Shown: piece after piece, positions 7,420 to 49,412 of the stretch
Position numbering within the stretch: the first letter of the stretch is position 1
Layout of the letters: each line of letters starts with the position of its first letter
Origin: Minisyncoccota bacterium
Lineage (GTDB): Bacteria > Patescibacteriota > Minisyncoccia > Phycocordibacterales > UBA918
DNA: 55,035 bases
Reading direction: 5' to 3'
NCBI GenBank assembly: GCA_041688155.1
Contig: JBDNIW010000013.1
Coordinates: 1 to 55,035 of the forward strand
Notes under the pieces: model-generated
The model's input: only the letters and a program-made list of their open reading frames with translations
Told to the model about the DNA's origin: nothing
Databases searched by the model: none
Program-made: the position numbers and the translations under genes

Positions 7420-8211
7420 ATGGCTGGATACACGTACAAATACAACCCGAACCGTTCTGCCGAGTGGAACTATGGTGGTGCAAAATGGAAATTATCACGC
7501 TCCAAAATTGATTTTTTTAAGGAGTGTCCGCGCTGTTTCTGGGTGGACAATGTGCTGGGAACTAAGCGGCCAGGGTTTCCTTCATTTAACCTCAATATCG
7601 CCGTTGATGAACTATTCAAAAAGGAATTCGATGTGTACCGCGCAGACCAGACTCCACACCCACTCATGGAGCAGTACGGCATCGATGCCGTGCCGTTCCA
7701 GCATCCAGATCTGGACACCTGGCGCGATCCGTTTGTCGCTATTATGCACCGACACGAGCCAACTGGCATGATGATCAGTGGGGGAGTTGACGACATTTGG
7801 GTGAACCCCGCCGGGAACCTCATCATCGTCGATTATAAGGCCACCTCAAAAGATAGCCGGATTGACAAGCTCGGCGACAGTCCCTGGGAGCAGCAGTACA
7901 CTCGCCAACTCGGGGTGTATAAGTGGCTCCTGGAGCAAAACGGCTTTACCGTTGAGGACACTGGCTACCTGGTGTATGCTAACGCTGACAAGTCTCTGCC
8001 TGAGTTTGGCGATACGTTACAGTTTGAAACTACCGTCATACCGGTAGAGGCCGTGACCGATTGGATCGAACCGACACTGAGCGAGATCAAAGCCTGCCTG
8101 GACCAAAAAACCATCCCAGAAATTGGGGAATCATGCGAATTCTGCCCCTACCGAGAAGCTTGCGGGAAGAAATTACTCAAAATCCACAACCAGACGAAGA
8201 AATCTATCTAA
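7420..8211 (+). CDS. PD-(D/E)XK nuclease, Cas4/RecB-like with Fe-S cysteine cluster
   Basis: CPRC near N-terminus, IIVDYK core, QLGVY, C-terminal CEFCPYREAC (CxxCx5C). Confidence 0.75.
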   Translation: MAGYTYKYNPNRSAEWNYGGAKWKLSRSKIDFFKECPRCFWVDNVLGTKRPGFPSFNLNIAVDELFKKEFDVYRADQTPHPLMEQYGIDAVPFQHPDLDTWRDPFVAIMHRHEPTGMMISGGVDDIWVNPAGNLIIVDYKATSKDSRIDKLGDSPWEQQYTRQLGVYKWLLEQNGFTVEDTGYLVYANADKSLPEFGDTLQFETTVIPVEAVTDWIEPTLSEIKACLDQKTIPEIGESCEFCPYREACGKKLLKIHNQTKKSI

Positions 8212-19793: not shown

Positions 19794-19811
19794 AAATCTA
19801 CCGTTTAGACC
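19780..19811 (+). other. 14-bp perfect hairpin spanning the rpsI stop codon and the 5' consensus of repeat unit A
   Basis: GGTCTAAACGGTAG-aaat-CTACCGTTTAGACC. Confidence 0.7.
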
Positions 19812-19923
19812 GGTCCTAGCGAGAGCTAGGAATCGTCGATGTTTACGAGACGATAGGAGGGAACAAATATTATTACGTTCTGGGTCGTCCAACAAAGCCA
19901 CCAATCTCTGGTGGTTTTTGTTT
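19798..19923 (+). ncRNA. structured repeat unit A (hairpin CCTAGC-GAGA-GCTAGG, hairpin ATCGTC..GACGAT, TAGGAGGGAA, terminator)
   Basis: First of 4 tandem paralogous units; ends with CCACCA-atctc-TGGTGG hairpin (19898-19914) plus T-run. Confidence 0.55.
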
Positions 19924-20039
19924 ACTCCGGTCCCGAAGGGATCGCCGATATGAAGCGAAGCGGAAGCAGGCGAAGGTGGGAACCGAGTATCAAACTATGC
20001 TGAAGAAAAAGAGAGTCACCCTGACTCTCTTTAGCGTTT
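19924..20039 (+). ncRNA. structured repeat unit B (divergent: TCCC-GAA-GGGA, TCGCC..GGCGA, AGGTGGGAA, terminator)
   Basis: Same architecture with different but still complementary stems; AGAGAGTCA-ccc-TGACTCTCT hairpin 20010-20030. Confidence 0.5.
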
Positions 20040-20157
20040 ACTCCAATCCTAGCGAGAGCTAGGAATCGTCGATGTTTACGAGACGATAGGAGGGAAGAAC
20101 GTCACATTGTGACAGGCGTCCATCGAAGCCACCAAACATTGGTGGCTTTCTCCGTTT
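20040..20157 (+). ncRNA. structured repeat unit C
   Basis: Near-identical core to unit A; AAGCCACCA-aacat-TGGTGGCTT hairpin 20126-20148 plus T-rich tail. Confidence 0.55.
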
Positions 20158-20313
20158 AGACCGGTCCTAGCGAGAGCTAGGAATCGCCGATGTTTACAAG
20201 GTGAATGCTGAAAGCAGAGAGGGTGCCCTGGGGTACGAGACGATAGAAGGGAAGAACGTCAGTCTAGTGACAGGCGTCCAGCAGAGCCACCATGTACGGT
20301 GGCTTTTGTTTTG
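20158..20313 (+). ncRNA. structured repeat unit D (with ~40-nt insertion in second hairpin)
   Basis: Same 5' core; insertion 20195-20233; AGCCACC-atgtac-GGTGGCT hairpin 20285-20304 plus TTTTGTTTTG. Confidence 0.55.
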
Positions 20314-21047: not shown

Positions 21048-22973
21048 ATGGCAAAAATATTAGGAATCGACCTTGGAACCACCAACTCAGCAATCGCAGT
21101 GATTGAAGCTGGTGAACCAGTCATCATCGAAAACAGTGAGGGTGCGCGAACCACGCCGTCTATCGTTGCAATCAGTAAAGCCAACGAACGACTGGTGGGG
21201 CAGATTGCCAAGCGGCAAGCCGTGACCAACCCCACCAACACAATCTACGGGATCAAGCGGTTCATGGGGCATGACTTCACCGACGAGGTAGTCCAAAAAG
21301 ACATCGACGTTGTCCCGTACACTATCAAGAAAAGTGAATCCGGTGGCGTCATCGTCGAGCTCGACGGTAAGGACTACCGCCCAGAAGAAGTCTCTGCGAT
21401 GATCCTCAGCAAACTAAAAGCCGACGCGGAAGCAAAACTAGGGGAGAAAATTACCGAAGCGGTGATTACCGTACCGGCGTACTTTAATGACTCTCAACGC
21501 AAAGCCACCCAAGACGCTGGTAAGATTGCAGGACTAGACGTCAAGCGAATCATCAACGAACCAACTGCTGCAGCGCTCGCGTACGGATTCAACAAGAAAA
21601 AAGAAGAGAAAATTGCCGTGTACGACTTTGGTGGTGGAACTTTTGATGTCACTATCCTCGAAGTAGGGGACGACGTAGTAGAGGTCCAAGCGACCGACGG
21701 AAACGCCCACATGGGTGGGCGAGATATCGACCAAGCGGTCGTGCGACACCTGATTGCAGAATTCAAGAAGTCAGACGGAGTAGACCTCGGTAAAGACAAA
21801 CTAGCTCTGCAGCGACTAGACGAGGCAGCTGAAAAGGCCAAGCTGGAACTGTCGAGTACTACCGAAAGTAACATTAACATTCCATTTATCTCTCAGGGTG
21901 CTGATGGACCACTCCACTTCGACGTAACTCTGACCCGATCAAAACTAGAAGAACTAGCGCACGAATACATCGACAAATCGATTGAAATCACCAAGCGCGC
22001 GCTCGAAGCGGCTGGTGTCAAAAAAGAAGACATCAACGAAGTGATCCTAGTGGGAGGACAAACCCGGATGCCAGCGATTCAAAAAGCCGTCAAGGATTTG
22101 TTTGGCAAGGAACCAAACCGGACCATCAACCCAGACGAGGTAGTGGCGCTCGGGGCAGCGATTCAGGCCGGGATTTTCCAAGGTGACGTCCAAGACATCA
22201 CCCTGGTTGATGTGATTCCACTATCACTTTCAATTGAGACGATGGGCAGTGTGGCGACCAAACTGATCGAGAAAAACACGCACATCCCCACCAAGAAATC
22301 CCAAACGTTTTCAACCGCGGCCGATAACCAAACCTCAACCGAAATCCACGTCGTGCAAGGCGAACGACCAATGGCGGCTGACAACAAATCCCTGGGAAAG
22401 TTTGTCCTAGACGGCATCCCACCGGCACCCCGTGGCGTCCCACAGGTAGAGGTCACGTTTGACGTCGATAGTAACGGTGTGCTCAACGTCACGGCCAAAG
22501 ACAAATCAACCGGCAAGGAACAATCAATCAAAATCGAAGCTAGTTCTGGTCTGACCGAGGAGGACATCGAGAAAATGAAGTCAGAAGCCGAAGAGCATGC
22601 CGGTGAAGACGCCAAAAAGAAGGAACTGATTGAGGCGCGCAACCTGGCTGAACAGCTCGTGTACACTGCCGAAAAATCAGTCAAAGACCACGCTGACGAC
22701 ATTCCAGCTGAAACCAAAGAGGATATAGAAACTAAAATCAAAGCGGTAAACGAAGCGAAAAGTGGTGAGGACAAAGCAATGATCACCACAGCGATCGAAG
22801 CCCTATCGGAATCACTCCAGAAAATCGGTGAGATCATGCAGAAAGCCGCCGAGGCAGCTCAGGCTGGTGCAGCTGATGGTGCCAAAACTGATGAAAGTAA
22901 GTCCGACGAACCCAAAGTTCATGAAGCAGAAGAGGTGAAGGAAGATAAGGATGAGACTGAAGATAAAAAATAG
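21048..22973 (+). CDS. dnaK: molecular chaperone DnaK (Hsp70)
   Basis: [29 protein letters not shown] signature motifs. Confidence 0.97.
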
Positions 22974-23267
22974 TTGGTGAGGATGAGTAACAGTGTGACA
23001 ATCTTTTCGGCGGCACACTCGACTCCTGACGCCGCTTGATGCACACACTAAATAACCGTTGCGGTGAGGCTGACAATCATTACGGCTGACTGATAAAAGT
23101 ACTACTAGACCATAAAACAGGAAAGCCATCTCAGCGAGTGATTAGGATGTACACTCAGGAAGAATGATTAGAGTGTAATCATGAAAACCTCGCCAGACTA
23201 TTGCAAAACCAACGTTACCGCCACTCATGGAACCAGAACCCAACTGAACTCTTGCAAAACCAACATT
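22972..23267 (+). repeat. composite inverted-repeat intergenic element, copy 1 (dnaK|dnaJ)
   Basis: Left arm from GTTGGTGAGG..CAGTGTGACAATCTTTTCGG; right arm TACACTC..GAGTGTA..CCTCGCCAGACTATT; conserved right flank CCCAAC..AACTCTTGCAA. Confidence 0.7.
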
Positions 23268-24346: not shown

Positions 24347-24358
24347 CCTGAGCCGTGT

Positions 24359-24597
24359 AACTTGGTGAGAAATAGTGTGACGGTCTTTTCGGTTACTTGC
24401 TCGACTCGCGTTCGCTCCCTGAGCAAACAAACCAAACGCCCGTTGTGGTATAGCCGGTGTACTTTACCGCTGACTAAATGTAAACGCTTGAATCACTTAC
24501 GCGCTGAGAACTACAGCGAATGTTATCGCATGCACGAGGGAGTTCGACACGCGCGTATCGCCGATATGCTCGCCCGACTATTTCATGCCAACACTCC
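24359..24597 (+). repeat. composite inverted-repeat intergenic element, copy 2 (dnaJ|yigZ-like)
   Basis: Left arm AATAGTGTGACGGTCTTTTCGG..TTGCTC[18 nt]GAGCAA..CCGTTGTGG; right arm shortened but ends GCTCGCCCGACTATTTC. Confidence 0.7.
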
Positions 24598-24621
24598 GCC
24601 AGTCTAGTACTATTGCAGACA

Positions 24622-25620: not shown

Positions 25621-26127
25621 ATGACAACTACAATATGTTTTGCAGACAAAAAGTTTGCAGAATGTGTCGACTTTTGTTTGGCACTGGATAAAAAATGTTT
25701 TCCACAACAAATGTGGTTAGACAACGATGAAATAGATAGCCTACTGGAGGCAGAGGCTTGGGTAACAACTCTGACATATAATCGACTAGAGATTGGTCTC
25801 GCTATTATAATTCCAGAAATAGCAGCCGGCAAACTACTTGAAGACATCGATAGACAATTTACACCTACCAGACTAGGGGCATATTCATACTCAGAGGCAA
25901 TAGATCCCCAATTCCAAAGACGGGGTATCGGTCCTCTTCTTCTAAAGGAAACTCAGCTCTTTACATCCCGACGTGGATTCACGACCCTGTCGGCACATGT
26001 TCGCACTAAATTCAGGTGGAACGAAACACGGAATAGACACCTAGAGGTGATTGAAAGTCGACCAGTCGAAGACTTCTGGCCGGCCACTCTACAAGAGCCA
26101 GTTATGTTCCAAGACGCTTGCATTTAG
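25621..26127 (+). CDS. GNAT family N-acetyltransferase
   Basis: QFQRRGIGPLLLKE acetyl-CoA motif A; GAGGG Shine-Dalgarno-like site 7 nt upstream. Confidence 0.7.
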   Translation: MTTTICFADKKFAECVDFCLALDKKCFPQQMWLDNDEIDSLLEAEAWVTTLTYNRLEIGLAIIIPEIAAGKLLEDIDRQFTPTRLGAYSYSEAIDPQFQRRGIGPLLLKETQLFTSRRGFTTLSAHVRTKFRWNETRNRHLEVIESRPVEDFWPATLQEPVMFQDACI

Positions 26128-26132
26128 TATAA

Positions 26133-26160
26133 AGCTACCAGCTTGACTGGTAGCTTTTTA
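26133..26160 (+). terminator. intrinsic terminator after GNAT gene
   Basis: AGCTACCAG-cttga-CTGGTAGCT followed by TTTTTA. Confidence 0.75.
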
Positions 26161-26190
26161 TATATACGCTCTTTGATTACACAAAGAAAA

Positions 26191-26216
26191 GACTGCACAG
26201 GAATATCTGTGCAGTC
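26191..26216 (-). terminator. intrinsic terminator after EamA transporter gene
   Basis: GACTGCACAG-gaatat-CTGTGCAGTC; T-rich tract on the minus strand (TCTTTTCTTTG). Confidence 0.7.
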
Positions 26217-26220
26217 ATTT

Positions 26221-27216
26221 TTAAAACTCAATCCCAGTATCTACCAGAATATAAGCACCAACCCCTGTCAGAACTAGGGCAATGGAGAATTGCGCCAACT
26301 CCTTTCGAGTATATACGATTCGCTTTTCAATAAGCACACTAAGCACCAACACGTAAAAAGCTTGATAGGTGTTAGTTGTCATAACAAACGCCGCAGTCGA
26401 GATTAGTGCCGCGTAGCCAATAGCGACGTTGGCTACGTTGTATAAGCTTTCGTTAAGCACATTCAAACTCAACAACTTGACCCCTAACTTGCGTGATTCC
26501 CAGAACGCTCTGCGGTACTGGGGGATGAACACAAGAATGAGAAATCCAAGCATAACCATTACCACTCCCTCAAAGAAAATGGAACGTACCAAGCTTTCTT
26601 CAAGCGCTACCTTTTTGAACAACACTGTCTCAGCTGCCCAAAAAATTGACGCCGGCACCATTAAACTTATAGTACCCCAACTTATAATTCGATTACCGTC
26701 ATCATCCTCTCTGAATGAAACATAACCGGTACCCAAAAGAATAAGGATCATGGCAATCAATTGTAGAGATGAGATAGCCTCGCCTAGGACGAACCACCCG
26801 CCTATTCCCGTAAATACTGGAACAAGTTGGTAGAAGATAATTACAACAACCGCCTCTTCGCGTGCCATGGCATATAGATAACACCCCAAAACCAAGACGT
26901 TGAGTACAGCAACAATTACCAAAATGGAAATGTTGATGTCTTCATCACTCAATGGTTGAGCGTTGAGCACATATTGTGCCAAGGCTTCTGGCAGATTTAC
27001 AATCGCTGAAAAGTCGCTCCAAAATTCAAGTCCAGTGATTGGGCTCGAAATTATAAGGACCACAAGAACGATGCTCGTTAAGAGTGTGGAATAAAGGATT
27101 AGAGTCCCAGGTCCATACTTATCTAAGTGTTTTTCGAGAATGTGCTTGTCGATTTGATTTGTACAAGCATATAGAAAGGACGCAAGTTGCGCCCAGATAA
27201 ATGATCCAAGCAGCAT
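26221..27216 (-). CDS. EamA/DMT family transporter
   Basis: About 10 TM helices in two halves; start at ATG 27216 preceded by GGGAGG. Confidence 0.65.
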   Translation of the reverse strand: MLLGSFIWAQLASFLYACTNQIDKHILEKHLDKYGPGTLILYSTLLTSIVLVVLIISSPITGLEFWSDFSAIVNLPEALAQYVLNAQPLSDEDINISILVIVAVLNVLVLGCYLYAMAREEAVVVIIFYQLVPVFTGIGGWFVLGEAISSLQLIAMILILLGTGYVSFREDDDGNRIISWGTISLMVPASIFWAAETVLFKKVALEESLVRSIFFEGVVMVMLGFLILVFIPQYRRAFWESRKLGVKLLSLNVLNESLYNVANVAIGYAALISTAAFVMTTNTYQAFYVLVLSVLIEKRIVYTRKELAQFSIALVLTGVGAYILVDTGIEF

Positions 27217-27302
27217 TTGCCGACCTCCCAAGTTGCGTTACGATCTAAAATGACTATAACACAATTATCTATAAATTCAAGCAGTGTACCGGTATTTACA
27301 TT

Positions 27303-28181
27303 ATGAATTTTTGTGTTACTTTTCACAAGACACAACCACCCCCTGTGATCGGTGGAACTAACCACAAAAATTGCGACTACATGATTGATGACTACACTTA
27401 CAATACAGACAAAATTATATCTGGGCTATTTTGTCCTTCAATTGATGAGGCCGTGGCCGAAATTGAAAACAGACGTAAGAACCCAGATCTTGCTAAAAAA
27501 GTAGCTGACTATCTTCAAAATGACATACCGGAACACTTTTCGCGAAGTAGGCCAATTTTTTATTTTTCAAGACATCTCGCAACGCCAAACTTTGAAACTG
27601 AACAAGTGATAGAAATTACAAAACTTCACAATCTTGCTCTTGTTATCGGGGAAGATATAAAAGGAATATTTGTGGCCAACAATGAACTGAAAATTTCTCT
27701 TGCTAAGCTACCAGTAGTTAGTGGATTTTCCAGAAGGGGTGATGAGATTATCGAGAATGTAACAATTGTCGATTTCTCAACTAACCAAGGGAAACCTATG
27801 GATGAGATCTTGACAAAATCCGGTGAAACCTTATCGAACTTCCACCACAACCTGTTCAAGTCTGTATACCCAGATTTACCGGAAATTATAGACGAATCAC
27901 AGTGGATAGATCGAAACAACAGGAATGATATCCAAGAGCAATATAAAAAAATGCTAGCCCTGCTATGCGTGCACGGAATTATGTTTGAATCGTATGTGCC
28001 AAACGAATCTAAATTTGTTTCAGAGGTTGTAAAGCCAGCATTCGACGCTATTGAGAAAGAAATTGGAGTCCGCCCTCTAATTGTAGAGCATATATCATCA
28101 GATTTAGAACAAACCAGAAACTGGAACTCATATCCAAACAATGTGTATGACTTTGTTCAAGAGAGAACTAATTTTAAATAA
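27303..28181 (+). CDS. hypothetical protein, no recognisable domain
   Basis: 292-aa ORF in AT-rich stretch; alternative start ATG 27381. Confidence 0.5.
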   Translation: MNFCVTFHKTQPPPVIGGTNHKNCDYMIDDYTYNTDKIISGLFCPSIDEAVAEIENRRKNPDLAKKVADYLQNDIPEHFSRSRPIFYFSRHLATPNFETEQVIEITKLHNLALVIGEDIKGIFVANNELKISLAKLPVVSGFSRRGDEIIENVTIVDFSTNQGKPMDEILTKSGETLSNFHHNLFKSVYPDLPEIIDESQWIDRNNRNDIQEQYKKMLALLCVHGIMFESYVPNESKFVSEVVKPAFDAIEKEIGVRPLIVEHISSDLEQTRNWNSYPNNVYDFVQERTNFK

Positions 28182-28187
28182 TCCGTC

Positions 28188-28196
28188 TGCTACAAT
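28188..28196 (+). promoter_or_regulatory. extended -10 TGcTACAAT, 6 nt before SET gene ATG
   Basis: Read directly. Confidence 0.5.
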
Positions 28197-28202
28197 GCAG
28201 TT

Positions 28203-28820
28203 ATGAAGAATACTAAAACCCCACAAATGTTCTCTTGGATGCATCCAGACCTGACGATTAAACTCACAAAGAAATACGGCAAGGCTAATCTCGCTAAAAG
28301 TGTTGACGGGCAGAAAGAATACATTAAAATTTCCGGAGACGGAAATGCCGTTTTTGCAAAAAAAGACATCAAAAAAGATAGTATTCTTTTTGTTATGGGT
28401 GGGTACATACTCGACATAGAGGCTGAAAATAAATTAACTGGGATTGTTTCAGACAAACCAATTGAACTATCTGAAAATTTCTCTATTGGACCAAGAAAGG
28501 CTTCAGATTTACCAAAAATGCCCCAACATTATGTGAATCACAGCTGCGAACCAAATACCGGATTCGACGGTCAAGTTTTTATGGTTGCGATGAAGAAAAT
28601 AAAAAAAGGCGACGAAATTGTTTACGATTACGGCATGATTATGCATACCAACAAGGCTAGTAACAGCTACTTTGAATTCGACTGTGTTTGTGGAAAGAAA
28701 GCGTGTAGAGGCAAAATTGGTGAAAATGATTGGAAGAATCTCAAGCTACAAAAGAAGTATGATGGCTATTTCCAGCACTACCTACAGAAAAAAATAAATA
28801 AGCTGTTTACACGAAAGTAA
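28203..28820 (+). CDS. SET-domain protein-lysine methyltransferase-like
   Basis: NHSCEPN, EIVYDYG, and post-SET-like CVCGKKACRG motifs. Confidence 0.8.
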   Translation: MKNTKTPQMFSWMHPDLTIKLTKKYGKANLAKSVDGQKEYIKISGDGNAVFAKKDIKKDSILFVMGGYILDIEAENKLTGIVSDKPIELSENFSIGPRKASDLPKMPQHYVNHSCEPNTGFDGQVFMVAMKKIKKGDEIVYDYGMIMHTNKASNSYFEFDCVCGKKACRGKIGENDWKNLKLQKKYDGYFQHYLQKKINKLFTRK

Positions 28821-28857
28821 ATTTCGTAAAAAGCTGTATACTATAAATATTACTTTC

Positions 28858-29229
28858 GTGTATAAATTTATATCTAAACATATTCTAAGCTTGGTGCTTA
28901 TTCCAACACTAATGCTCGTAATAGCAGCGAGTTACTTCAGGTTTTTTGTATTACAAGACTACCTAATTGCCTATGAGGGCCACTGTGATCCTATAACACA
29001 TTCATGTTATGTGTGGTGTGAAGATTTAAATAATGATGATAGCTGTTTTTATTACTCAGTAATCGAACGCCAGGCATACGAAATAGCAAAAAAATGTGAT
29101 CTCGATCTTTCCGAGTGCGACGCTGCATATAAATGTCAAGAAGATGTTGCAATCTGTTCTATACACTACTGTGATCCCAGCGTCGACGGAGAAGAATCCT
29201 GCGACATAATTAATGCAGAGAGGCTATGA
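28858..29229 (+). CDS. small membrane-anchored cysteine-rich protein
   Basis: GTG start; one TM helix then 12 Cys in about 90 aa; stop overlaps ATG of the kinase gene (ATGA). Confidence 0.5.
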   Translation: MYKFISKHILSLVLIPTLMLVIAASYFRFFVLQDYLIAYEGHCDPITHSCYVWCEDLNNDDSCFYYSVIERQAYEIAKKCDLDLSECDAAYKCQEDVAICSIHYCDPSVDGEESCDIINAERL

Positions 29230-30905
29230 TTTGCTACTATTTCGAACAACCTACGTACTTATTTTTTGGCAACGATGTACCAGGCTTGCTCTACTACTCA
29301 CACCTACCGGTGTCCCTCCTAGCTTTGTTAATAGGCTTCTTTGTTTTCTTTAGTGCTCCTCAGCAATTGCTCAACAGGCTACTATTTTATATAACAATAT
29401 GCTTTGCAATCTGGGCAGGTTTAAATCTTATCACTTGGACCAACATTAATAGTGACACATTGCTATTTTCATGGTCTATCCTAGGTATATTGCAAGGACT
29501 ATTATCAATACTATGCATTTACTTAGTTACGGTATTTTTAACAAAAAAAGATGTCGGATTACCCACAAAGTTGGCCTATTTGGTGCTACTAGTGCCAGTG
29601 TTAATATTTGCACCAAGTATCGCAAACCTAAGTGGTTTTGATGTAGCTGATTGTGACGCATTTAAGTACGAAGGTTTACCTTACGTAATTTACTACACAG
29701 GATTAGGATTGTTAGCAATTGTGTGGATTGTCATCCTCGCGATAAAGCACTACATTTTAGAAACCAACACCCAAAAAAGAGGGGAGATAGTTTTGATGAG
29801 TTCAGGAGTCTCATTATTTCTGTTCAGTTTCTTTTTTATTGTTTTTCTCGCCGCTTATTTAGCTGAACCGGGTATTTTGAATGATTCGTCACTTGAGCTT
29901 TATGGGATGTTTGGGATGCCTGTATTTATGTTGTTCATGGGTATTTTAATCGTCCAATCCAAAACTTTTAGGGTTACCGTAATTGCACCAACAGCTCTGG
30001 TAATAGCGCTGACAGCGCTGACAGCAGCACAGTTTACTTATGTTCAGACTACAACCGGGCAAATCTTAACTGGTATAACAGTTATTCTGGTAGTGATATC
30101 AGGACTCTTTCTCATTAGAAGTGTTCGCAAAGAAATTAAACAACGTGTACAACTTCAACTCCTAACCTCCCAGTTAGAGGAGGCAAATCTACGACTACAG
30201 GCCCTTGATAAACAAAAGTCAGAATTTGTTTCGATTGCATCTCACCAACTACGTAGTCCACTGACTGCTATGCGAGGATATGCTTCACTGCTGATGGAGA
30301 ATAATTTTGGCGATATTCCAACCAAAGCCCGGGAGCCCCTGGAACGGATCGAGACGTCAGCCCGGCAGATGGCGCTCGTCATCGAAGACTACCTCAACAT
30401 CTCACGGATAGAGTCTGGCAATATGAAATATGAAAAGGCGGACTTTAACCTGCGTGACGAGGTGGAACGTATTTGCGATGATATCCGGCCAGCAGCGCTC
30501 AAGCAAGGACTAGTGTTATTGTTCCGAACTAATCTGACCAGCACAGGAATTGTTAACGCTGACGTGGGTAAAACTGTACAAATTGCCCATAACCTGATTA
30601 ACAATGCTATCAAATACACTAAGAAAGGTACTATCACTGTACTGGTGCGTGATGACGTCAAAAGCAAGAAAATATTTTTAGCTGTGACTGACACTGGAAT
30701 AGGGCTGTCACAAGCCACAATCAACATTTTGTTCCAAAAATTCAGCCGCGCAGAAGACGCCAATACAAACAATTCGACGGGGACAGGTTTAGGACTGTTT
30801 GTGGCCCAAAAAATGGCAGGGGCCATGGGTGGTACGGTTTCCGCGCACTCTGAGGGTGAAGGGAAGGGATCACGATTTACCTTCACCCTCCCACTAGAAA
30901 TGTAG
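29226..30905 (+). CDS. sensor histidine kinase with multi-pass membrane N-terminal domain
   Basis: H-box SIASHQLRSPLTAMRGY, N-box HNLINNAIKYT, G1 DTGIGL, G2 GTGLGL. Confidence 0.85.
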   Translation: MICYYFEQPTYLFFGNDVPGLLYYSHLPVSLLALLIGFFVFFSAPQQLLNRLLFYITICFAIWAGLNLITWTNINSDTLLFSWSILGILQGLLSILCIYLVTVFLTKKDVGLPTKLAYLVLLVPVLIFAPSIANLSGFDVADCDAFKYEGLPYVIYYTGLGLLAIVWIVILAIKHYILETNTQKRGEIVLMSSGVSLFLFSFFFIVFLAAYLAEPGILNDSSLELYGMFGMPVFMLFMGILIVQSKTFRVTVIAPTALVIALTALTAAQFTYVQTTTGQILTGITVILVVISGLFLIRSVRKEIKQRVQLQLLTSQLEEANLRLQALDKQKSEFVSIASHQLRSPLTAMRGYASLLMENNFGDIPTKAREPLERIETSARQMALVIEDYLNISRIESGNMKYEKADFNLRDEVERICDDIRPAALKQGLVLLFRTNLTSTGIVNADVGKTVQIAHNLINNAIKYTKKGTITVLVRDDVKSKKIFLAVTDTGIGLSQATINILFQKFSRAEDANTNNSTGTGLGLFVAQKMAGAMGGTVSAHSEGEGKGSRFTFTLPLEM

Positions 30906-34912: not shown

Positions 34913-34920
34913 GCTGTTTA

Positions 34921-35216
34921 AGTTGGGGATGGTTAATAATATCGTGACGCTCTTTTTGGCGGCACACTCGACTCGCTCACCGCTCCCTGAGTGCACACAC
35001 CAAACAACCGTTGTGGTACTGCTGATGTACTTTACTAGCTGACAAGCTACGTGTAGTTAAACACATTCGACCTATTACATTATCGAGCACAAAAATAACC
35101 ACGGGAGTGTTTAGTTTGTATACTCAGGGAGCGAATGCGAGTCGAGTATGCAACCGAAAAGCGCGCCCGTACTATTTGTAATACCAAATCCCAACGCAAC
35201 TCTTGCAACCTCAACG
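34921..35216 (+). repeat. composite inverted-repeat intergenic element, copy 3 (aspS|aminopeptidase), best preserved
   Basis: About 97-nt arms 34921-35017 and 35099-35195 are imperfect reverse complements; spacer has TACTTTACTAGCTGAC. Confidence 0.75.
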
Positions 35217-37252: not shown

Positions 37253-37530
37253 GGTTGGTGGTAGTGATTACGTTGGTGCTTAGTGCGTAATAATGTGACG
37301 GTCTTTTCGACAGCGCCCTCGATTCGCTTAGGCTCTCTGAGGGCATCTCCCAAACACCCGTTGTTGGTATTGCTCAGGTTCTTTACTGGCTGACTGAACA
37401 TAAAACCGGAAAGTTCCTATTAGACCTCGTGTCCACACGCAACCACCAAGGGAGTTTGGTTTGTTTACTCAGAGAGCGGAGCGAGTCGAGTAAATAACCA
37501 AAAAGCTCGCCCCACTATTGCAGCACCAGC
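37253..37530 (+). repeat. composite inverted-repeat intergenic element, copy 4 (scpA|scpB)
   Basis: Left arm TAATAATGTGACGGTCTTTTCGA..GCCCTC[18 nt]GAGGGC; right arm TTTACTC[17 nt]GAGTAAA..AAAAGCTCGCCCCACTATT. Confidence 0.75.
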
Positions 37531-37597
37531 TCCGCTGGCAGGTTCCTATACCACTGACAGCCACTGTGATTTAGCCACGGTTTCACCTCGTCACTTG

Positions 37598-43862: not shown

Positions 43863-45163
43863 TGCAGAAACGAGTGCTTGTAGCCTTTGTTATCGGACTG
43901 GTGCTACCAGTCTCTTTTTCGTACACCCATCATGCGCTTGCGCAAAGCGAGATTGCTGAACTACGTGACCAGATTCTTGAGCGCGGTGACCGGTTGACCG
44001 ACATCGAAGCTGAGATTGCCCGCTTTGAAGCCGAGCTGCTCGAGGTGGGAGCAGAGAAGCAAACCCTCCAGTCAGCCATCAACCGCCTTGAAACCGAGCG
44101 TAAAAAAGTCAACGCCGAGATCAGTAAAACTGAATCCTTAATTTCTTCCACTGATTTGGAAATCAGTGGGATTATACTTGAGGTAAGTAGAACTGAAGCT
44201 GACCTCGAGCGCACGGAAGCTGCCATCGGCGACATCATCCGCTCGCTCTACCAAGCTGGAGAACAGTCAATGGTCGAAGTGTTGCTGCGCAACCAGCGCT
44301 TATCAGAGTTTTGGACCGAAATCGACACCTTTGACAGTATCAAAAGCGAAATGGCATACAAAGTAGCCACCCTCAGCCAACTACAGCAGGTACTAGAAGA
44401 ACGACAAGGTCTAAGTGAGTCAAAGCGCAATGACTTGAGTTCGCTCAAAGACCAGTACACTGACCAAAACTCCGTGCTCGTTAACAGTCGAGCGGAGCAA
44501 TCCGAGCTGTTGTCTGCTACGAAAAATGAAGAGGCTGAATATCAAGCACTACTTGCGACACAAGAAGCCGCCCGGGAAGAAATCCGCCGTGAGTTGCGAG
44601 ACTTTGAATCCAAACTTCAATTTATCCTTGATCCCAACACTATCCCGGCACCGGGGACACCAGTGTTCAACTGGCCCTTGCAAAACGTCATCATCACCCA
44701 ATTGTTCGGGGGGACAGAGTTCGCCGCTCGTAACCCCGGCATCTACGGTCGGCCATATCACCCGGGGGTCGATTTTGGCGCACCACGCGGCACACCAATT
44801 CTAGCTCCGCTAGCTGGGACCGTCCGGGCCGTCGGAAACACTGATGCTGTCCCCGGCTGTTTCTCTTGGGGCAAATGGACGTTGATTGATCATGCCAACG
44901 GTCTATCATCAATGTATGCCCATCAAGACGTTATCGGGGTGACTCCAGGACAAAAAGTATCAACCGGCGAGATCATTGGGTACATCGGCAACACCGGACT
45001 ATCGACTGGTCCACACCTCCACTTCACTGTGTACGTCAAAGAGGCAGTCAGTGTCCGTCGCTTCAACGAAATCAAAGCCGTCACCGGCTGCGGACCAGCC
45101 ACTACTCCAACCGCAGCCACCTCAGCCTACATCGACCCAATGCTCTACCTACCACCGAGGTAA
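43862..45163 (+). CDS. M23 family metallopeptidase with N-terminal coiled coil (EnvC-like)
   Basis: Signal/TM, long coiled coil, HPGVDFGAPRGTP and GNTGLSTGPHLHF motifs; ATG 43862 overlaps gltX stop. Confidence 0.85.
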   Translation: MQKRVLVAFVIGLVLPVSFSYTHHALAQSEIAELRDQILERGDRLTDIEAEIARFEAELLEVGAEKQTLQSAINRLETERKKVNAEISKTESLISSTDLEISGIILEVSRTEADLERTEAAIGDIIRSLYQAGEQSMVEVLLRNQRLSEFWTEIDTFDSIKSEMAYKVATLSQLQQVLEERQGLSESKRNDLSSLKDQYTDQNSVLVNSRAEQSELLSATKNEEAEYQALLATQEAAREEIRRELRDFESKLQFILDPNTIPAPGTPVFNWPLQNVIITQLFGGTEFAARNPGIYGRPYHPGVDFGAPRGTPILAPLAGTVRAVGNTDAVPGCFSWGKWTLIDHANGLSSMYAHQDVIGVTPGQKVSTGEIIGYIGNTGLSTGPHLHFTVYVKEAVSVRRFNEIKAVTGCGPATTPTAATSAYIDPMLYLPPR

Positions 45164-45901
45164 GTAGAATAATATGGTGGGTTTATTATAAAGTACGTTG
45201 CAAGTGAATGTCGCACATTATTTTGTTTACCAACTAACAGGGGAGTGGGGACTCGGAAAGTTGATCAGTAAGCTGTCTACTGGTCAAGAGCCATCTGGTC
45301 ATCATCGTCAGAATTTAGTGGTTTGGTTCTAGTAATAAATGACGAAATTCGACTAGTTGATTTAAATTGATAATTTTTTTAATTATTAATTTTAAAATTA
45401 TTTTCTTTAAAGTACAGGCACCAGCAGCCGACTCAAACAAACCTGTGAGCGTAGCAATGCTTGATTACTACCGGTGCCGCTACACAAGCAAAACCCAAGG
45501 CAACCATCAACATCCTCTACGCGGATACAGAAGCCTTACAATCGATTCTAGAGCCTTGTATAGGCTGGTCACTGATAACCACAGGTGGACCCAGGAGCCC
45601 GCGTAGCAAAAAACAGGCTGTATAGGGTGCGTAGCTAAATGGGGTAAAAACTGAAAGAGGCAAAAGTAGGGGTAATCAACCTATGGAGTACCCACACTCA
45701 TGATAATAGACTCCCAGGCGCTTATACACAGACTAACTGTAGGCAGCCTTGCCAGACTATCAGTACCTTGGTAATTTATATAGTATAACTGAGCATTAGA
45801 GTTATTATACTCAGTTACTGTGGGGAGGGAGGGAGGGCTCGTGTAAGGCTGCTATAGTATCTGTAGAGCCACCCCACTCTCAGCGCACCCTGAATTTATT
45901 T

Positions 45902-46858
45902 ATGACTAAAAAACCCCACCCACCCACCCTACCGTACCTCGATGATTTTTTGCTGCACATCCAGGCGAACAATTATTCGCCAGAGACTTTATACAACTAC
46001 GAACGCGATTTGCTCACATTTGACTTTTTCTTGAAAAATGAGCTGTCCTCTCTCCCCTTCACCAAAATCACCAAAAAAACCATCGAGCAGTTCAAAGCGT
46101 ACCTGAACTCAAACGACCGAAAAACGGCTGGTGGAGAGTTGGCCCAAAAACGACTCGCCAGTGCCTCTATCAACCGTACCCTGACATCACTGCGGCGCTA
46201 CCTAAATTTCCAGGTCGACATGGACTACCCGTGCCCGATAGTCCCCAGCTCAATTAAACTCCTCCGGATGGGTAAGAAACACGGGCAGGTTGCCCAGATG
46301 TCAGAGTTGGTCAAACTGATTGAAGCCCCAATGACCTACGAGCAAGATAAAGTAATCGCCCTGCGTAACCGTGCGATGCTTGAGACGCTGTTCGCTAGCG
46401 GGATGCGTATCTCAGAGCTTATCAACCTCAAAAAAATCCAACTTGACCAGTCTGGCAAAATATTTATCGAGGGCAAGGGTAAAAAGCAACGCTTTATCTA
46501 CCTGACTGACCGCGCCAAAACGCACATCGATAATTATCTTGCTCAGCGAGAAGATGATCAACCCTACCTGTTTATCGCTAAACGTGGCCTCAACGCCGCC
46601 GACAAAACCAAGCCGATCAGTCCCAACTACCTCCAAATGAAGATCAAACAGTACCGCGAGTTACTCGGCATCAACATCCCCACCAGCGCACACTCACTCC
46701 GCCACGGCTTCGCCACGTACCTCGCCGAGCAAGGCGCCAACCCCGCTGCCCTACAGGTACTCCTGGGTCACGAGTCACTCGAGACCACCACCAGATACGT
46801 CCACGCCAGCGACCGCTACGCCGAAGACACCCACAAGCAGTTCCACCCGTTAAAATAG
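45902..46858 (+). CDS. tyrosine site-specific recombinase, XerC/XerD family
   Basis: SAM-like N-domain; RNRAMLETLFASGMRISEL and HSLRHGFATYLAEQGA...LLGHESLETTTRYVH catalytic motifs. Confidence 0.9.
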   Translation: MTKKPHPPTLPYLDDFLLHIQANNYSPETLYNYERDLLTFDFFLKNELSSLPFTKITKKTIEQFKAYLNSNDRKTAGGELAQKRLASASINRTLTSLRRYLNFQVDMDYPCPIVPSSIKLLRMGKKHGQVAQMSELVKLIEAPMTYEQDKVIALRNRAMLETLFASGMRISELINLKKIQLDQSGKIFIEGKGKKQRFIYLTDRAKTHIDNYLAQREDDQPYLFIAKRGLNAADKTKPISPNYLQMKIKQYRELLGINIPTSAHSLRHGFATYLAEQGANPAALQVLLGHESLETTTRYVHASDRYAEDTHKQFHPLK

Positions 46859-49149: not shown

Positions 49150-49412
49150 GTCTTATAGATAAATGTCGACACCCACGAGTGAGTATAGGTCGGAGGACTC
49201 AGATGAGCGCCCCTTCCCCGACAACCGAACAACTCTATCATGAATTGCGGATATTTATTACTATAGCAGAGTAGTGACTAAATGTCAATACATGTGTCTC
49301 GTAGTGGATACGTTCCACTAGATTAAGGAAGAAATAATGTTGGGATATGTACTCAGGGAGACACGATTCGAGTGTCATCCGGAAAAGCTCGCCCGACTAT
49401 TACGACCATTAC
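49150..49412 (+). repeat. composite inverted-repeat element, copy 5 (right arm clear, left part degraded)
   Basis: 49337-49412 GTACTC AGGGAGACACGATTC GAGTGT..GGAAAAGCTCGCCCGACTATTACG matches right arms of copies 2-4; left half only loosely similar. Confidence 0.5.

Follow-up and report, generated by a model that had tools for sequence, protein, structure and literature searches.

Does the repeat between scpA and scpB in this Paceibacteria-like chromosome owe its shape to the long palindrome formed by its two inverted arms, or to a smaller hairpin within each arm, and, in the latter case, on which strand and in which molecule does that hairpin act? The question was raised by a preliminary description of the window (the whole stretch of DNA analysed here, 55,035 nt), which reported six hairpins of the form NNNCTC-loop-GAGN'N'N' in repeat arms whose outer stems differ between copies but stay complementary. 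Direct reading of the letters places all six where they had been reported, at homologous positions in nine arms. The reported loop length of 17-19 nt is right for five of them, the copy at 23150 having a loop of 14 nt. These motifs exceed chance expectation: the window contains 6 matches to the loop pattern CTCGANTCG-N3-8-CTCYCTGAG versus 0.00 expected, and perfect 6-bp hairpins of this form number 10 on both strands versus a mean of 2.25 in Markov simulations. Their 5 sites in the window are all inside repeat arms.

The window comes from a bacterial chromosome, and nearly all of its core genes are on the + strand: alaS, infA, rpsM, rpsK, rpsD, rpoA, rplQ, rplM, rpsI, grpE, dnaK, dnaJ, genes for two histidine kinases, trpS, asnS, an M29 peptidase gene, scpA, scpB, a D-Ala-D-Ala carboxypeptidase gene, a mraY-like gene, ftsW, murG, gltX and others. 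No tRNA genes were found in it. The nearest named DnaJ proteins come from MAGs of 'Candidatus Paceibacteria', Kaiserbacteria and Nomurabacteria, and an identical DnaJ is encoded on the JGI metagenome contigs Ga0209491_10000063 (168 kb) and Ga0105055_10000650.

Several features of this region are of interest in their own right. The rpsI-grpE spacer (19795-20311) holds three tandem units of about 125-165 nt. Two hairpins are found in each, one of them capped by GAGA (CCTAGC-GAGA-GCTAGG), together with a terminator-like GCCACCA..TGGTGGCTTTT. A fourth, differing unit (19921-20031) is conserved in a relative (L124, 6636-6745). These units have no match in Rfam and are candidate tandem small-RNA genes. 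A perfect palindrome of 20+20 nt with a 3-nt loop, between two + strand genes (1582-1624), is probably a terminator or an operator. A stand-alone gene for a PD-(D/E)XK / Cas4-like nuclease is found at 7420-8211, and the window has no CRISPR array or other cas genes. Finally, a low-GC island at 26000-30000 (0.37-0.41, versus 0.46-0.52 elsewhere) encodes an EamA transporter, a SET-domain protein and others of unknown function; it is a variable region, and its gene content differs among relatives (L124, L127, L130, L131 and L175).

The repeat family is intergenic and takes up about 2% of this 55-kb core-gene region. Its nine arms make four full elements and one half element (Table 1), and the covariance model built for the arm finds exactly these nine and nothing else in the window at E below 0.5. 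The left arm of E1, the right arm of E2 and E5, of which the right arm alone remains, are degenerate or decaying. The copies within the window are just 60-87% alike, which argues against a recent burst in this lineage.

Table 1. Repeat elements, arms and hairpins; positions are those of the window unless a related locus (L) is named
Feature	Coordinates	Strand of model match	Context or sequence	Evidence
E1	22967-23221		between dnaK and dnaJ	nhmmer
E1 left-arm core	22999-23065		hairpin broken	cmsearch 45.6 bits
E1 right-arm core	23128-23192			cmsearch 49.2 bits
E2	24347-24600		after dnaJ	nhmmer
E2 left-arm core	24381-24449			cmsearch 82.5 bits
E2 right-arm core	24510-24572		degenerate	cmsearch 34.1 bits
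E3	34913-35187		between asnS and M29 aminopeptidase gene	nhmmer element and arm profiles
E3 left-arm core	34948-35017			cmsearch 78 bits
E3 right-arm core	35098-35165			cmsearch 69.4 bits
E4	37263-37534		between scpA and scpB	nhmmer profiles; Pfam hits of flanking genes
E4 left arm	37280-37393			nhmmer element and arm profiles
E4 right arm	37436-37524			nhmmer element and arm profiles
E4 left-arm core, P1-P5	37299-37367	+		cmsearch 69.5 bits, E 3.6e-17
E4 right-arm core	37442-37509	-		cmsearch 68 bits
E5, half element	49247-49406		centre and right arm	nhmmer
E5 core	49327-49391			cmsearch 22.5 bits, E 4.8e-4
Hairpin, E1 right arm	23150-23156/23171-23177		TACACTC/GAGTGTA	letters read directly
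Hairpin, E2 left arm	24397-24402/24421-24426		TTGCTC/GAGCAA	letters read directly
Hairpin, E3 left arm	34965-34969/34989-34993		CACTC/GAGTG	letters read directly
Hairpin, E3 right arm	35120-35125/35144-35149		ATACTC/GAGTAT	letters read directly
Hairpin, E4 left arm (focal)	37315-37320/37339-37344		GCCCTC/GAGGGC; P4 and apical part of the arm	letters read directly; within the E4 left-arm core match
Hairpin, E4 right arm	37464-37470/37488-37494		TTTACTC/GAGTAAA	letters read directly
Cargo-side hairpin, L151	1120-1180		CCGRAG-N7-CTYCGG	
Cargo-side hairpin, L141	6490-6550		CCGRAG-N7-CTYCGG	
Cargo-side hairpin, L162	1885-1945		CCGRAG-N7-CTYCGG	
Cargo-side hairpin, L149	4043-4100		CCGRAG-N7-CTYCGG	

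Relatives of these arms were collected with a pattern that specified only flanks and loop and allowed any letters in the two stem halves, which gave 42 metagenome loci, and further arms were taken from loci around orthologous dnaJ genes. An arm profile run on the window and the related contigs gave 126 hits, 87 of them unique, and our alignment (A4) holds 71 distinct arm cores. A looser pattern (16 specified bases and a gap) was rejected, as it returned 119 chance hits in unrelated phyla; these loci became the negative control, in which the covariance model matches the loop segment only, at 21.5 bits or less.

The element consists of two differentiated, non-coding arms of about 110 nt each in inverted orientation. 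Left-type arms read ..GTGACGGG..CCCGTTG..CTTTACTGCTGA and right-type arms ..GGGGCGAG..CTCGCTG..TTTGCAATGCTGA, and they occur as convergent pairs of one left-type and one right-type arm in nearly every element. Blocks of conserved sequence (AATAG, CTTTTCG, the loop, CCAAAC, GTTGTGGT and CTTTACTGCTGA) surround the variable stems. The arm core is an imperfect stem-loop of about 70 nt with 21 pairs in five helices. P1 has 4-5 bp (columns 1-4 of the alignment with 65-68) and pairs CG[G/A]G with C[C/T]CG; the signature that tells left-type from right-type arms is a G-C/A-U switch in this helix, i.e. compensated pairs. P2 has 3 bp (TTT/AAA), and P3 has 5 bp (columns 11-15 with 55-59), in forms such as GCAAG/CTTCC, GGTTA/AAACC, GGCAG/ATGCC and GGGAG/CTCCC. 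P4, of 7 bp (columns 17-23 with 46-52), is the NNNCTC/GAGNNN hairpin of the preliminary description. Above it, a conserved internal loop (GACTC/TCCCT) lies beneath P5, an apical helix of 2 bp (columns 30-40 and 31-39) that closes a loop of 4-7 nt.

Left-type arms have, at their outer edges, 1-3 additional units of 25 nt in tandem. Examples of such units, with a consensus of about TTGGGTGAGGAATAGnGCGGCG in 2-4 copies, are found in three relatives (L162 2682-2754, L158 330-460 and L141 6665-6750), and Tandem Repeats Finder gives a period of 25 and 2.9 copies for the outer edge in L162. These units may serve as a series of protein-binding sites, or they may be left over from successive duplications of the end. 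The inverted repeat fades outwards into degenerate versions of them, and no sharp element boundary can be defined. At the other end of the arms, the minimal element centre is TGCTGA-CAGATCAA-TCAGCA, and a perfect 15-bp palindrome, CTAGGTGTCACCTAG, recurs in element centres.

The pairs of the arm core covary well beyond what composition would give. In the 71 cores, 83.5% of the cells of the 21 pairs are paired, versus 70.0% after shuffling, a value that none of 500 shuffles reached, and versus 26-43% when the partners were slid by 1-3 columns. Two-sided changes occur in 17 pairs (11.5 expected, 0/500 shuffles), and the covariation score is 0.30, versus 0.10 in shuffled and 0.08 or less in slid alignments. 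RNAalifold recovered P1 unprompted. Because the arm sequences are related, we also placed the substitutions on a neighbour-joining tree. Pairs 14-56, 19-50, 3-66 and 13-57 changed together on 6, 5, 6 and 3 branches and rank within the top 3, 4, 15 and 38 of 1263 column pairs for co-substitution. The top-ranked column pairs outside the structure tested at that point were 30-40 and 31-39, which led to the discovery of P5; pair 30-40 switched from G-C to C-G four times on the tree. Overall, 26 double substitutions from one Watson-Crick pair to another, over 12 pairs, map to single branches.

Individual copies show how this variation arises. P4 exists in at least 10 distinct complementary versions, some of them joined by one-step intermediates (TTCACTC/GAGTGAA, TTCACTC/GAGTAAA, TTTACTC/GAGTAAA). 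The right arm of E1 has CGAG..CTCG in the window and CCAG..CTGG in orthologous copies (L175 and L142), a compensated transversion pair seen in a strain whose DnaJ is 97% identical to that of the window. The inner CTC/GAG, which had been taken as invariant, is not: a large subfamily has GCCCGA...AAGGGC, and the two innermost pairs are broken in 13 of the 71 arms.

Is it then the local fold or the long palindrome that is preserved? The stems of the two arms of E4 are not complementary to each other, as the preliminary description pointed out, and the family shows the same tendency. At the 16 variable stem columns of 34 distinct elements, left:right complementarity is 39%, versus 86% for local pairing, and it reaches 79% at the other core columns. 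This difference (0.39 versus 0.86) indicates that selection acts on the local fold, as had been proposed, and the covariation behind it survives the shuffled, slid and tree-aware controls. For a whole short element in single-stranded form, the minimum-energy fold is the long left:right hairpin (-94 to -103 kcal/mol, with z-scores of -4.6 to -6.8). The folds of single arms as DNA are weak (-8 to -12 kcal/mol, with z-scores of -0.1 to -1.7) and indistinguishable in stability from those of shuffles; the case is therefore built on covariation rather than energy. The fold is real, it is kept by compensatory substitutions, and the selected unit is the arm.

Imperfect pairs show which strand folds. 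When all arms are read in left-arm orientation, 1097 cells of the 21 pairs are Watson-Crick, 151 are A·C and 19 are G·U, and 52 events on the tree enter or leave A·C states versus 19 for G·U states. Both arm types show the asymmetry: once two conserved C·A positions are excluded, A·C outnumbers G·U by 58 to 8 in left-type and by 33 to 8 in right-type arms. An A·C cell becomes G·U (G·T) when the complementary strand is read, so wobbles are tolerated on the strand whose loop reads AGGGAGCG..GCGAGTC. This strand runs 5' to 3' from the element centre to the outer tip in both arms, and is thus the + strand of the window for right arms and the - strand for left arms. The arms of one element lie on opposite chromosomal strands, and strand-specific mutation bias cannot therefore cause the asymmetry.

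Folding predictions agree with this assignment. RNAalifold gives -14.1 kcal/mol in the antisense orientation and -7.1 in the sense orientation, and folds with DNA parameters reproduce P1-P5 for the right arms of E3 and E4 on the + strand and for the left arm of E3 on the - strand. For the left arm of E4 the wobble asymmetry says that the - strand folds. The assignment could be weaker if the conserved C·A and T·C mismatches were recognition bulges on the other strand, as conserved mismatches are in E. coli REP sequences (PMC8266576). The T·G pairs on the + strand that were said to extend the right-arm stems of E3 and E4 do exist (TGTATACTC/GAGTATGCA and TTGTTTACTC/GAGTAAATAA), but the suggestion drawn from them, that the hairpins act in a + strand transcript, suits right arms only. 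The wobbles of left arms are on the - strand, and a single + strand transcript is insufficient for both arms. Single-stranded DNA at each end of the element is a more economical reading than one transcript.

The elements come and go. They are always intergenic, usually start 6-30 nt past a stop codon and may point either way between co-directional genes; this mixed orientation was considered as a clue and set aside as uninformative. The dnaK-dnaJ spacer is empty, at about 70 nt, in five relatives (L124, L127, L130, L138 and L156). In the window, L142 and L175 it is occupied by E1, oriented left to right; L164 and L169 have instead an element from a different stem subfamily, oriented right to left, and L146 and L165 have a solo arm. 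E3 is missing from the orthologous site of L124, and there are no arms within 20 kb in L127 and L130-L132. Orthologous left arms of E2 differ at at least 5 stem positions between strains whose flanks are 90-98% identical. We saw no direct repeat at the element edges that would indicate a target-site duplication, but these edges are blurred by the degenerate 25-nt units, and identity in the flanks of the available empty sites is only about 70-85%.

Some elements carry genes. The arms are separated by 10 nt up to 1.3 kb, and the longer gaps hold diverse small ORFs, of which one is uridine-kinase-like, one has an H-NS C-terminal domain and the rest have no Pfam hits. About 11 of 13 such ORFs point from the left-type to the right-type arm. 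Gaps can differ greatly between relatives: in L173 and L157 they measure 539 and 108 nt between shared arms whose flanks are 92-94% identical, and downstream of the same gene for a 486-aa membrane protein the same arms enclose unrelated cargo in L141, L151/L163 and L162. In the last of these, a RelBE-like pair (1185-1742) separates two cargo units; this is a RelB/DinJ-like and RelE/YafQ-like toxin-antitoxin pair judged by sequence appearance only, and its position recalls the toxin-antitoxin cassettes of integron arrays. Cargo begins directly after ..CTTTACTGCTGA, often with TTGACA-like boxes. Its other end, immediately ahead of TCAGCATTGCAAA, is often formed by a small covarying hairpin and then AATCGTAGATCAA. 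This cargo-side hairpin and AATCGTAGATCAA, next to the inner end of the right-type arm, are present in about 8 of 15 cargo-bearing elements (examples in Table 1).

We found no transposase, HUH enzyme or recombinase beside any element of the window or the 42 related loci. Transposase and RAYT genes are absent from the 55-kb window and from the 25 Pfam families most often met in 148 neighbouring proteins. Likewise, the 562 kb of related loci contain no autonomous insertion sequence with the same ends, all cargo being non-transposase. The sole recombinase candidate in the window is a gene for an Xer-like tyrosine recombinase (45902-46858), 2.4 kb from the half element; this gene is found in the window only and in none of the other loci, and we rejected the idea that a tyrosine recombinase travels with the arms. 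Directly upstream of it are 740 nt without genes (45163-45901), with an AT-rich run at 45330-45410 and no hit in an RNA family search. The elements contain no sigma-70-like promoters or intrinsic terminators. Rfam gives no match in the whole window at the gathering threshold and nothing on the elements at E up to 10, and a search of a phage collection gave no match. The heptamer CACCAAC/GTTGGTG was rejected as a special target motif, as it is common in coding sequence (33 copies).

Our preferred reading, to which we give a probability of about one half, is that each arm is a structure recognised as single-stranded DNA, and that the two of them mark the ends of a mobile or recombining element that is non-autonomous and resembles the REPIN/BIME, MITE or attC kinds. 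Folding on opposite strands, in mirror symmetry about the centre, is the arrangement that a DNA element would need at its two ends. The folded species would be single-stranded DNA or an extruded cruciform at each element end, and an enzyme acting in trans, encoded elsewhere in the genome, would recognise the arm by its shape together with the conserved loop and flanking motifs. Such recognition has known analogues: RAYT/TnpA-REP recognises REP hairpins, TnpA the ends of IS200/IS605, and integron integrases the folded attC sites. Once its stems no longer paired, a lineage would stop propagating. A need for pairing in propagation would explain the paired stems of well-preserved copies, the discrete stem subfamilies and the decay of some resident copies.

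A different view of the same arms is possible if unlikely, namely that the hairpins act as RNA. The elements would be co-transcribed with flanking genes or cargo, and the arm in folding orientation would form a stem-loop at the 3' end with a role in stabilisation, processing or insulation of the message, as reported for REP/BIME, ERIC and Correia elements. G·U-type asymmetry and covariation in several helices are typical of structured RNAs, and every element of the window sits in a transcribed-looking spacer close to a stop codon, usually 6-30 nt after it and between co-directional genes. The direction of about 11 of 13 cargo ORFs, from left to right, would put the folding right arm at the 3' end of the cargo message, and TTGACA-like boxes stand at the start of the cargo. 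Yet the asymmetry affects both arms on opposite strands, so that half of the signal would require antisense transcription, for which no promoter was seen. The occurrence of elements in both orientations between co-directional genes, the absence of a U-tract after the hairpin and the lack of an Rfam match also speak against this view, as does the decay of several resident copies (the left arm of E1, the right arm of E2), which would not be expected if every locus served the host. Mutation might also produce complementarity without any selection, by intra-strand template switching (quasipalindrome correction) or by gene conversion between copies. One study documents that template switching creates and maintains hairpins and mimics compensatory change (10.1101/2021.04.15.439925, PMC8794818), and the E2 left-arm differences, at at least 5 stem positions, resemble replacement more than point mutation. 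We find this origin improbable: templated copying would yield perfect pairs without strand bias, but one-sided intermediates are common and biased towards the wobble-compatible state (52 versus 19 events), conserved bulges and internal loops persist uncorrected, and five helices covary independently, down to single pairs such as 30-40.

Even less credible is that the arms bind proteins as double-stranded DNA, as operators, nucleoid-protein or partition sites made of half-sites for a dimer, with no folding at all; we regard this as very improbable. Conserved blocks do surround the variable stems, and the 25-nt units at the outer edges resemble iterated binding sites. However, duplex binding conserves sequence, and predicts neither half-sites that covary through at least 10 complementary stems nor the asymmetry between A·C and G·U. 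A last alternative keeps the single-stranded fold but changes its use. The arms might be two differentiated recombination sites, rather than transposon ends, that together form a chromosomal gene-cassette platform of Patescibacteria, a proposal that we consider doubtful and make tentatively. Accessory genes with their own promoters (for uridine-kinase-like, H-NS-domain and lipoprotein-like proteins and unknowns, with the RelBE-like pair between two cassettes) would be inserted, lost and exchanged at the fixed junction ..CTTTACTGCTGA / (C)AGATCAA-TCAGCATTGCAAA. The minimal 'empty' site, TGCTGA-N8-TCAGCA, resembles a tyrosine-recombinase core flanked by structured accessory arms, and the whole would be akin to an integron or to pdif modules, with inverted paired sites and no linked integrase.

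How do the elements compare with known systems? They share several features with REP, BIME and REPIN sequences, which are also dispersed, intergenic and non-coding and consist of two inverted hairpin units with a variable linker, with two unit types per doublet (in E. coli, y with z1 or z2). REP hairpins are recognised in single-stranded form, on one strand, with a requirement for conserved mismatches, and the REP literature describes compensatory changes and an alternative 'clover' fold of two local hairpins proposed as the active form (PMC3116915; PMC8266576). Two inverted units that form a long doublet hairpin, as in REPINs, are also found here (-94 to -103 kcal/mol). REP units have 20-50 nt, whereas ours have about 70-110 nt and five helices; REP sequences have GTAG directly before the stem, whereas our arms have AATAG 5-6 nt outside P1, on the poorly folding strand; and compensation in REPINs was reported in the long doublet hairpin, whereas here it lies inside each arm. 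The arms of some of our elements are, unlike those of REPINs, 0.3-1.3 kb apart and enclose genes, and the host, unlike those in reports on REP and REPIN, is of a Patescibacteria lineage. The RAYT/TnpA-REP gene of REP and REPIN systems is single-copy and usually flanked by REP sequences.

Like MITEs and mobile insertion cassettes (MICs), the elements are non-autonomous, end in inverted repeats, lack a transposase and exist in short forms without ORFs and longer forms with passenger genes; for MITEs and MICs, both forms are presumed to be mobilised in trans (PMC3129680). But we identified no parent insertion sequence, and the inverted repeats are about 110 nt long, internally structured and unlike at the two ends; the terminal repeats of typical MITEs are conserved in sequence without covariation, in contrast to these arms. 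The likeness to attC sites lies in a fold that is kept while its sequence varies, in an excess of G:T pairs on one strand, in the proposed recognition as folded single-stranded DNA with unpaired features, as in attC, and in the small, exchangeable gene cassettes, one array of which holds a putative toxin-antitoxin pair. In attC sites, G:T mispairs are in excess on the recombinogenic strand (1.24 versus 0.39 per site; PMC5027507); the comparable figures for our arms are about 2.1 versus 0.27 per arm. However, the RYYYAAC/GTTRRRY boxes of attC are absent, the flanks of the stem being CG(G/A)G..C(C/T)CG, and GTTGTGG does not fit GTTRRRY. Integron cassettes have one direct attC site each, whereas here two inverted sites alternate in orientation and type; unlike integron cassettes, ours appear to bring their own promoter-like boxes, and there is no intI/attI platform and no integrase near the arrays.

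Finally, IS200/IS605 ends have subterminal imperfect hairpins that are read as single strands by a Y1 HUH transposase, without target-site duplication. This reading of single-stranded hairpins is also discussed in PMC8266576. In IS200/IS605 the end hairpins are on the same strand and the ends are not inverted, whereas here homologous hairpins lie on opposite strands, and neither tnpA nor tnpB is present. The element lacks the defining sequence features of REP/REPIN, of IS200/IS605 and of attC, and we therefore do not file the element as a member of any of them.

Overall, this repeat family provides unusually clean covariation evidence for a selected single-stranded fold of a DNA repeat, with its folding strand. 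Patescibacteria (CPR) have small and compact genomes that are thought to be poor in mobile DNA. If the arms act as RNA, they would represent a new class of structured RNA absent from Rfam. If, instead, they are read by an enzyme acting in trans, they would reveal an undescribed system of single-stranded-DNA transposition or cassette exchange in an uncultured phylum, and the covariance model would give a sequence handle with which to look for the enzyme by phylogenetic profiling.
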